Origin: Longimicrobiales bacterium
GTDB taxonomy: Bacteria > Gemmatimonadota > Gemmatimonadetes > Longimicrobiales > Gaopeijiaceae
DNA: 64,000 nt
Direction of reading: 5' to 3'
Assembly (NCBI GenBank): GCA_963664435.2
Contig: CAXXKM010000002.1
Span: 512,001 to 576,000, forward strand
The notes under the pieces were generated by a model. The model searched no databases. It was not told the DNA's origin and was given only the letters and a program-made list of their open reading frames with translations. A program made the translations under genes and the position numbers. Every line of letters starts with the position of its first letter. Position 1 is the first letter of the stretch. Shown here in pieces: positions 1 to 447 of this stretch.

Positions 1-122
1 TAGGTTGGGGGGAATACCTTGTCTCCCGCGCCACCCGCGGGCTGAAGCGTCAGGCGTGAGCGGAGCGCGACGGCACCGCCGCTGACGGCCTCCAGCAGGG
101 CGGGGAAGGTGAGTTCGGTCAT
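1..122 (-). CDS. csb1: Type I-G (I-U) CRISPR-associated Cas7/Csb1 (GSU0053 family), N-terminal 40 codons; truncated by the window edge
   Basis: Manual translation from ATG at 122-120 gives MTELTFPALLEAVSGGAVALRSRLTLQPAGGAGDKVFPPT(Y). LQPAGG-x-GDKVFPPTY is the characteristic Csb1/Cas7g N-terminal motif as I recall it. SD GGAGGAG lies just upstream. Not in the ORF track. Confidence 0.85.
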   Translation of the reverse strand, partial: MTELTFPALLEAVSGGAVALRSRLTLQPAGGAGDKVFPPT

Positions 123-218
123 GCTGCTCCTCCGTAGGGTTGGCTGGACCCGCCGTTCACCGCAGATGGCGGACCAGAAAGGTATTGTGGTCTTGCCAAG
201 GGACACGGCTCACCGTGC

Positions 219-327
219 TGGAATGCGGCGGTGGGACTCGAACCCACAACCTGTCCGGGCGGTCTCTCCCGCAAGGGATCGACCATTCGTAGACCCGAAC
301 CGCTCTGTCCAAGTGAGCTACGCCACA
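219..327 (-). ncRNA. tRNA-like RNA with an expanded anticodon arm (possibly tRNA-Arg(UCU)-derived)
   Basis: Minus strand folds as: acceptor TGTGGCG/CGCCGCA; T8A9; D arm GCTC-ACTTGGACA-GAGC; anticodon stem GTTCG/CGGAC; variable region AGGTT; T arm GTGGG-TTCGAGT-CCCAC; then TTCCA. The anticodon loop holds 31 extra nt including the hairpin GGTC-GA-TCCC-TTGC-GGGA-GA-GACC. Confidence 0.85.
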
Positions 328-430
328 GTGCCGGAACCCGTGCGGGCCCCGGAACCCGTCCTCCGACGAATGGAGGCACCCCGCTGACGCACCAGCTTCA
401 ATGAGGCTGTGGATGATCACGAGTGTATTC
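328..430 (-). CRISPR. Degenerate single-spacer mini-array / crRNA-like RNA (pseudo-repeat, ~37-nt spacer, pseudo-repeat hairpin)
   Basis: 430-395 reads GAATACACTCGTGATCATCCACAGCCTCATTGAAGC, with a type I-G-like 3' end and 8-nt handle ATTGAAGC. Spacer spans 394 to ~358. A second repeat-like hairpin CCGGGGCCC-GCAC-GGGTTCCGG lies at 352-331. Confidence 0.75.
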
Positions 431-447
431 TGGTGAGTTAGAGGGGT
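428..447 (+). promoter_or_regulatory. Putative Cascade target site (TTC PAM plus partial protospacer) in an AT-rich, promoter-like region
   Basis: TTC (428-430) precedes TGGTGAGTTAGAGGGGT, versus guide TGGTGCGTCAGCGGGGT. A -10-like TACACT lies on the minus strand at 427-422. Confidence 0.65.

Follow-up and report, generated by a model that had tools for sequence, protein, structure and literature searches.

A tRNA-like RNA adjoins the second pseudo-repeat of a predicted type I-G regulatory mini-array

Here we report that a hairpin at positions 328–357 (minus strand) of the window, the whole 64,000-nucleotide stretch of DNA analysed, reads as pseudo-repeat 2 of a regulatory mini-array that precedes a type I-G csb1 gene. 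The two pseudo-repeats and the spacer between them very probably make up a CreA/CreR-type mini-array of the type I-G system. The explanation that we prefer, with about even confidence, takes the hairpin as the 3′ pseudo-repeat of this array and the tRNA-like RNA behind it as a cargo on the same transcript. Complementary decay of the two repeats is already known from such arrays; the new element is the fused, conserved and non-canonical tRNA-like RNA. At the level of sequence, the locus holds both pseudo-repeats, the spacer, a unique PAM-flanked target and a cloverleaf, and the module recurs in a second family, represented by the genome G415 (another family of the same class). The features are as follows.

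1–122, minus strand: start of csb1 (cas7g), with its start codon at 122; first gene of the cas operon, which continues beyond the window
184–206, minus strand: possible separate csb1 promoter, a weak member of the motif TGTC-N12-NANNNT
203–221, minus strand: short hairpin that closely follows the tRNA-like RNA; G415 has a longer one at the corresponding place
223–327, minus strand: tRNA-like RNA with 7-bp acceptor stem, D arm, T arm and lengthened anticodon arm, and no CCA in register
328–357, minus strand: pseudo-repeat 2, with a 9-bp hairpin (352–331), a linker (330–328) and no handle
357–394, minus strand: putative regulatory guide spacer, 37–39 nt depending on the boundary
395–430, minus strand: pseudo-repeat 1, with a weak bulged stem (423–407), a 4-nt linker (406–403) and an 8-nt handle (402–395)
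428–430, plus strand: PAM, TTC
431–447, plus strand: predicted protospacer, directly upstream of pseudo-repeat 1, with mismatches at guide positions 6, 9 and 12

The mini-array and its predicted target

The cas operon has the order csb1, csb2, cas3g, a cas8-like gene (Cas3-extension), a gene for a Csb2-like C domain, further genes, cas4/1, cas2 and the main array. A profile search returned NCBIfam matches (TIGR02570, TIGR02165, TIGR02621, NF049934 and NF049935) and covered the cas genes other than cas2, which was assigned by eye. In the host genome of the window (G000), the main array comprises 27 repeats at C2:498.6–500.6 kb, with spacers of 35–38 nt. In its repeat, a 7-bp stem is followed by a 4-nt linker and then an 8-nt handle, the layout for which the Csb2 cut site was published (as described in bioRxiv 2022.08.08.503147). 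The main array also carries duplicated spacers (an adjacent identical pair, an identical pair 3 units apart and a pair with a one-base difference). A 486-aa gene without an NCBIfam match (L001:5825–7285, plus strand) lies inverted within the operon, between the effector genes and cas4/cas1. Both loci with the tRNA-like module have a second, stand-alone Csb2-like Cas6 domain gene after the cas8-like gene (L001:7540–8661, minus strand; L072:8870–9685, plus strand); the two proteins are barely similar to each other, and such a protein could act on the pseudo-repeats.

The two pseudo-repeats have decayed in opposite ways. Pseudo-repeat 1 keeps the handle, its last 12 nt (406–395) being identical to the end of the main-array repeat, and has a weak stem (−1.9 kcal/mol); by the published Csb2 rule, it is predicted to be cut at 403|402. 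Pseudo-repeat 2 is the converse, a division that the earlier note had correctly described and that is already published for other arrays. Its stem pairs 352–344 with 339–331 (9 bp, including 2 G-U) around a 4-nt loop (343–340), and the acceptor stem of the tRNA-like RNA begins at 327, directly after the 3-nt linker (330–328); on re-reading, the minus-strand letters of hairpin, linker and acceptor junction are those quoted in the earlier note. The 30-mer folds at −17 kcal/mol (z −2.29), a value equalled by 3 of 200 shuffles and by 0.4% of 3,000 random genomic 30-mers. A perfect stem of at least 9 bp starting 39–47 nt downstream occurs at 45 of 5,000 random genomic positions (0.9%). Between the end of the handle (395) and pseudo-repeat 2 lie 37–39 nt, according to the start chosen for the repeat; this bears out the earlier claim that the hairpin sits one spacer length from the handle (35–38 nt in the main array).

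Taken by its letters alone, the likeness of the hairpin to the cognate repeat is weak. The first 11 nt, aligned in register, agree with the cognate repeat at 8 of 11 positions (P = 0.008 against 20,000 genomic positions) and with the G415 repeat at 9 of 11 (P = 0.001), in both cases over an 11-nt window chosen after the match had been seen, and alignment over the whole length to the cognate main-array repeat is not significant (P ~0.2). The earlier suggestion that the hairpin resembles a type I-G repeat stem thus stands for the register, the hairpin and its position, and falls short for the whole length. The stem region also contains an 11-nt direct duplication (359–349 and 341–331). A contig from RNA libraries of a near strain has an A at 355 of the minus strand, the first letter of the cognate repeat. 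What decides for a repeat is G415, where the homologous module has an unmistakable repeat-derived hairpin.

The putative guide points back to the DNA directly upstream of its own array. Among 236 genomic sites that have a TTN PAM and match a 5-nt seed, 431–447 ranks first, agreeing at 14 of 15 scored positions, and the next best site agrees at 12; TTN is the type I-G PAM, and in the type I-G Cascade every sixth base is flipped out, as described in bioRxiv 2022.08.08.503147. Spacer and target pair over no more than 17 nt, in keeping with the cleavage-free repression that bioRxiv 2023.03.03.530964 describes for other mini-arrays. The mini-array appears to switch off its own promoter. Promoter scans of the window did not locate the upstream mini-array promoter; in G415, an 8/12 promoter match lies just upstream of the target.

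Two observations on the spacer count against our preferred explanation. The target (431–447) and the spacer (378–394) are inverted repeats around pseudo-repeat 1, and a precursor that includes 431–447 is predicted to pair this stretch with the spacer (probability ~1.0), so that in a precursor beginning upstream of 447 the guide could stay masked up to the cut. In addition, the near strain differs at spacer position 8, and a matching change in the target is not among the differences listed.

The last spacer of the main array shares its first 7 nt (window 388–394) and its last 4 nt with the mini-array spacer. Derivation of the mini-array spacer from the last array unit is not established, the alignment score of the last spacer being second among the 26 spacers (P = 0.017).

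The tRNA-like RNA and its distribution

The RNA at 223–327 shares with canonical tRNAs (Rfam RF00005, and the nearest tRNAs, Arg(ACG) and Thr(UGU)) a 7-bp acceptor stem, a D arm with G18G19 and a T arm. It differs from them in the anticodon arm: the canonical 5-bp stem with a 7-nt loop is absent, and both known copies have instead a 7–8-bp stem and a 32-nt interruption. In the window, the anticodon stem has 8 bp (300–293 with 260–253), followed by a loop-like heptamer (292–286) with ACG in the anticodon register and by a 25-nt hairpin insert (285–261). A sensitive search against RF00005 gave 38.8 bits. Owing to the interruption of its anticodon arm, the RNA escaped default ARAGORN and Rfam runs on the whole window.

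The complete module is also present in G415, before a csb1 gene whose protein is 77% identical (locus L009), in the order handle, spacer, hairpin, tRNA-like RNA, csb1. Within L009, its spacer matches a site just upstream at 14 of 15 positions, with PAM TTT and mismatches at 6 and 9. The G415 hairpin matches its own repeat, including the 4-nt linker, and is followed by 5 bases and then by the tRNA-like RNA. Across the 16 acceptor, D and T pairs of the two copies, 31 of 32 cells pair (the exception is C1-A72 in G415), with 1 two-sided and 3 one-sided changes; with only two rows, these counts have no statistical power, and 247 of 500 shuffles equal them. The anticodon stems differ by 3 two-sided changes, read by hand. 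Both inserts are 25-nt hairpins of unrelated sequence, the heptamers have 5 of 7 letters in common, and the last 25 nt of the RNAs are nearly identical. RNase P needs no anticodon arm, so that conservation of the heptamer and of the insert length points to a role other than that of a cleavage substrate, and the tRNA-like RNA looks selected for more than cutting.

An arginine character is indicated by several features and depends on the register chosen. The in-register heptamers read ACG in the window and UCG in G415, both arginine, and a one-base shift turns the G415 reading into serine; ARAGORN calls the G415 RNA Ser(cga) and the window RNA Glu(ctc) with an intron. Both RNAs have an A after G18G19, which together with C35 and G36 forms the bacterial arginine identity set as given in PMC9976931. 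In the host genome, it is chiefly arginine tRNAs that have this A (7 of 54 scanned sequences, a set that includes doubtful calls and one added Thr), and the closest tRNA there is tRNA-Arg(ACG), of which an ordinary gene lies elsewhere in the genome. Counting against arginine, the best match overall is the tRNA-Thr(UGU) of a related genome, which also has A after G18G19.

Three other origins of the element were considered. The remnant of a tRNA used as an integration site is not indicated, the last 24 nt having no other match within 4 mismatches in the host genome. Inspection revealed no bulge-helix-bulge of a spliced tRNA, and removal of the insert still leaves a 7–8-bp stem. Reading frames overlap the element, but the near RNA strain has a 1-nt insertion at 363, which speaks against a protein-coding region.

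The tRNA-like module is rare in the sets searched. Two of the 51 genomes that have a csb1 of this kind contain it, both being sources of the training sequences of our covariance model, and it is present upstream of 2 of 59 csb1 matches (L008 and L009), a set in which L041 and L057 duplicate other rows. Built from the two RNAs, the covariance model gave a full-length match among 151 genomes of the class only in the window's own; its other matches measured 73–76 nt, and the 7 loci checked were ordinary tRNAs. BLAST of 100–560 against 61 relatives returned only T-arm matches to ordinary tRNAs, and a 22-nt T-arm pattern was found in 1 of 401 genomes of the phylum (the host genome itself; G415 lies outside that draw) and in no viral contig. 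With a loose handle-plus-T-loop pattern in 47 genomes and the viral contigs, the matches listed were mostly ordinary tRNAs, and the 296 tRNA-shaped ones screened among them included no third module. The plasmids searched gave no match to the module, and the phages searched gave T-arm pieces only. Nine viral contigs (L109, L113, L118, L122, L132, L150, L159, L180 and L216) have tRNA-shaped genes with 25–55 extra bases between the D and T arms, in contexts unrelated to the mini-array module.

Four two-repeat mini-arrays lie before csb1 genes of a second type I-G group with no tRNA behind them (L034, L033, L023 and L031). L034 is in the host genome itself (G000:C3, ~300 nt upstream of csb1) and L033 is in G415. 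In all four, the second repeat has the full hairpin and linker and has lost the handle; a handle-less second repeat therefore does not call for a tRNA. Targets are clear in two of the four (L034, 14/15; L031, 13/15), while that of L023 is tied with noise and that of L033 is not top-ranked. The L034 and L031 spacers match sites close to csb1 with PAM TAC or TAT, which suggests CreR-type self-repression and a TAY PAM for the second type I-G group. At L019, a handle is present, with no clear target or second repeat.

The predicted guide 3′ end and possible transcription of the module

As described in bioRxiv 2022.08.08.503147, Csb2 cuts 4 nt past the stem and stays bound to the hairpin, and it binds the cut hairpin alone with a KD of 43 nM. 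The earlier note had placed the Csb2 cut at the base of the hairpin, which disagrees with this published position. By analogy, Csb2 would cut here at 327|326, one base inside the acceptor stem, and RNase P would cut at 328|327. Either cut is predicted to leave a guide of 75–76 nt, compared with 71–74 nt for guides of the main array.

The linker bears on the choice between the two enzymes. Behind the stem of pseudo-repeat 2, it matches the cognate linker at 1 of 4 positions in the window, at 4 of 4 in G415 and at 4–5 of 5 in the four tRNA-free arrays; it is thus kept in five of the six second repeats compared and eroded only in that of the window. The tRNA-like RNA abuts the hairpin here, whereas G415 has 5 more bases after its Csb2 linker. 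Given that G415 keeps the linker that the window has lost, RNase P may have taken over in the window. In the predicted precursor fold, the hairpin (pair probabilities 0.96–1.0) and the acceptor stem (0.68–0.91) fold separately and leave 330–328 single-stranded, as an RNase P leader should be, which favours RNase P. The host genome encodes an RNase P RNA (277 bits). Against RNase P, three free leader bases before a strong hairpin may hinder the enzyme through its leader contacts. In Haloferax, a functional crRNA has been engineered whose ends are made by RNase P and tRNase Z at tRNA-like elements, as described in PMC4326828. For this one locus, RNase P finishing the guide is plausible and favoured, with the odds in our judgement about level.

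The earlier idea that the tRNA serves as a processing signal for the guide accordingly divides in two. As a general rule it fails: the four tRNA-free mini-arrays truncate their second repeat likewise and the Csb2 linker of G415 is intact, so that guides of this type do not, in general, depend on a tRNA for their completion, and RNase P is not needed in G415, where the Csb2 site is intact. In the window it is favoured, as the one eroded linker of six is found here and the RNase P site lies at most 1 nt from the expected guide end.

Alternatively, the mini-array could be the same, with Csb2 or the stand-alone Csb2-like protein making both guide ends (the second at 327|326) and the tRNA-like RNA being a separate cargo with no role in maturation. 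This is the published route for two-repeat CreA, as described in PMC8501985, and it agrees with the cognate linker and 5 further bases before the tRNA-like RNA in G415, with the position of 327|326 on U1-A72, the least stable acceptor pair (0.68), and with a second Csb2-like Cas6 domain in the operon. We nevertheless judge it unlikely, given the near-complete loss of the cognate linker in the window compared with G415 and the tRNA-free arrays, and given that the cut would take off base 1 of a conserved acceptor stem.

Contigs from RNA libraries of the near strain cover 225–444 (X1 and X5) and 225–363 (X7) and nothing else of 1–900; X1 and X5, identical in length, place and depth, were counted once, and the three libraries fall under two study codes. 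In a fourth run, the whole stretch is present unchanged. The contigs stop near the 3′ end of the tRNA-like RNA and bridge the junction between hairpin and tRNA (331–327), and must therefore come from uncut precursor or from DNA; contigs cannot show ends or strand. They are a weak hint of a transcribed precursor, DNA in the library being possible, and missing RNA cover over csb1 and upstream is no evidence of silence. Among the strain differences listed, none falls in the hairpin stem or linker and one falls in the insert stem. A 46-nt piece of the window, at 561–606, has no second copy in the host genome; in run X10, two other contigs contain copies that are ~85% alike.

The motif at 206–184 may give csb1 a promoter of its own. 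Its pattern, TGTC-N12-NANNNT, whose spacing was picked out of 7 tried, occurs in 16 of 53 csb1 upstream regions, compared with 3 of 53 on the reverse strand and 1.1% of genomic windows; G415 has no match. Members lie 57–117 nt upstream of csb1 in several phyla (L016, L019, L020, L022, L028, L036–L038, L051–L053, L056 and L059–L061). The pattern presumably resembles the PafBC RecA-NDp DNA-damage promoter, and if this likeness is real, type I-G expression would be tied to a WYL-type activator. That motif is named, without a printed sequence, in PMC6789036. If csb1 has a promoter of its own, the guide would act chiefly on itself and on the tRNA-like RNA, in the manner of an antitoxin with its toxin.

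Proposed circuit and comparison with known systems

In the explanation that we prefer, one precursor would begin upstream of 444, and Csb2 would cut pseudo-repeat 1 at 403|402 to leave the 8-nt handle. Host RNase P would mature the tRNA-like RNA at 328|327. Since pseudo-repeat 2 has lost its Csb2 linker to decay in this lineage, that cut would also define the 3′ end of the guide, 75 nt long, with a hairpin that Csb2 could still bind. Cascade with this guide would sit on 431–447, pairing over 17 nt only, and would block transcription with the chromosome left uncut. Loss or inhibition of Cascade would lift the block and yield more tRNA-like RNA, which would have a function of its own. That last step is the weakest: an own function raised on de-repression, most likely that of a CreT-like growth-arresting decoy with arginine-tRNA features, is tentative and, taken alone, somewhat less than an even prospect. 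Still more doubtful is a dual role, in which the tRNA mimic would act at once as a toxin repressed by Cascade and as the signal for processing the guide that serves as its antitoxin: RNase P would free an arginine-type decoy with a hairpin insert in its anticodon arm and, by the same cut, complete the repressing guide. The module has only two independent examples, the window and G415.

A simpler circuit would be plain CreR-type self-repression of cas genes, with the tRNA-like RNA acting only as a processing or stability tag (a natural t-element) that frees the guide and perhaps the csb1 message. The parts read by RNase P, namely the acceptor, D and T arms, are indeed the best kept, whereas the anticodon arm is broken up; the mini-array lies directly upstream of csb1 on the same strand; and the engineered precedent works (PMC4326828). 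The four tRNA-free mini-arrays, however, manage without a tag, the kept heptamer and fixed insert length would go unexplained, and csb1 may have its own promoter at 206–184 (although G415 lacks that motif), which together make this reading quite improbable. Least probable of all is that the hairpin is no repeat remnant and that a GC-rich stem arose, by chance or by self-duplication, in the leader of a tRNA-like gene, with a one-handle guide trimmed by host nucleases: a one-handle CreA does exist (as described in PMC8501985), and the internal duplication and non-significant whole-length likeness would fit, but the stem is in the right place and register, G415 has a clear repeat-derived hairpin at the same place (P = 0.02–0.05 against its own repeat) and the RNA strain carries the first cognate repeat letter at 355.

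Our preferred explanation, a mini-array with a tRNA-like cargo, has close parallels. In CreA, likeness to the repeat is retained in the final 8 nt of pseudo-repeat 1 and in the initial 22 nt of pseudo-repeat 2 (as described in PMC8501985), and pseudo-repeat 2 is largely degenerate at the eight handle positions (as described in PMC9458426). The window follows this pattern, its repeat 1 keeping the 8-nt handle and its repeat 2 probably keeping the 5′ part and losing the handle, and it likewise has a partly complementary spacer and a PAM-flanked target inside the cas locus, in a region that may hold a promoter. The CreTA systems with a two-pseudo-repeat creA described in PMC8501985 and PMC9458426 are of types I-B and I-F. 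Unlike them, the present array is of type I-G, the RNA that it would repress lies downstream on the guide's own transcript, and that RNA, a putative toxin at most, is a cloverleaf and not a tRNA-sequestering mini-ORF RNA.

CreR and related mini-arrays repress cas promoters (bioRxiv 2023.03.03.530964, and the summary of CreR in bioRxiv 2024.01.05.574328), and in type I-D, cargo genes between mini-array and cas genes are described in the same two sources. The window resembles them in its position before the first effector gene, its degenerate distal repeat, its mismatches at 6 and 12 and its short pairing, and differs in that the target lies upstream of the array and that a non-coding tRNA-like RNA, joined to the distal repeat, forms the cargo. 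Neither I-G nor I-U is named in the main text of either source, and the supplementary tables of the survey may list type I-G loci. Our literature searches found no tRNA-like RNA fused to a regulatory mini-array and no type I-G regulatory mini-arrays; the present array extends such arrays to type I-G.

The CreT RNA toxins in the literature are mini-ORF RNAs and act by sequestering rare tRNAs; guides of type I systems owe their finished ends to Cas enzymes. Neither a host-nuclease-matured type I guide nor a tRNA-shaped CreT came up in our literature searches. If the preferred explanation is right, the locus would place a novel type of cargo under the control of CRISPR and might supply a natural example of a type I guide finished by RNase P. 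The nearest precedent for the latter is the engineered icrRNA with t-elements described in PMC4326828, in which a tRNA-like structure next to the crRNA likewise lets RNase P make the crRNA 3′ end. That archaeal construct has both ends made by tRNA enzymes, whereas the arrangement proposed here would be natural, concern one end only and keep a Cas6-type hairpin. The host genome also has a third CRISPR-Cas locus (L075; G000:C2:466000–478000), which lies ~21 kb away from the type I-G array and whose 8 repeats belong to another family.
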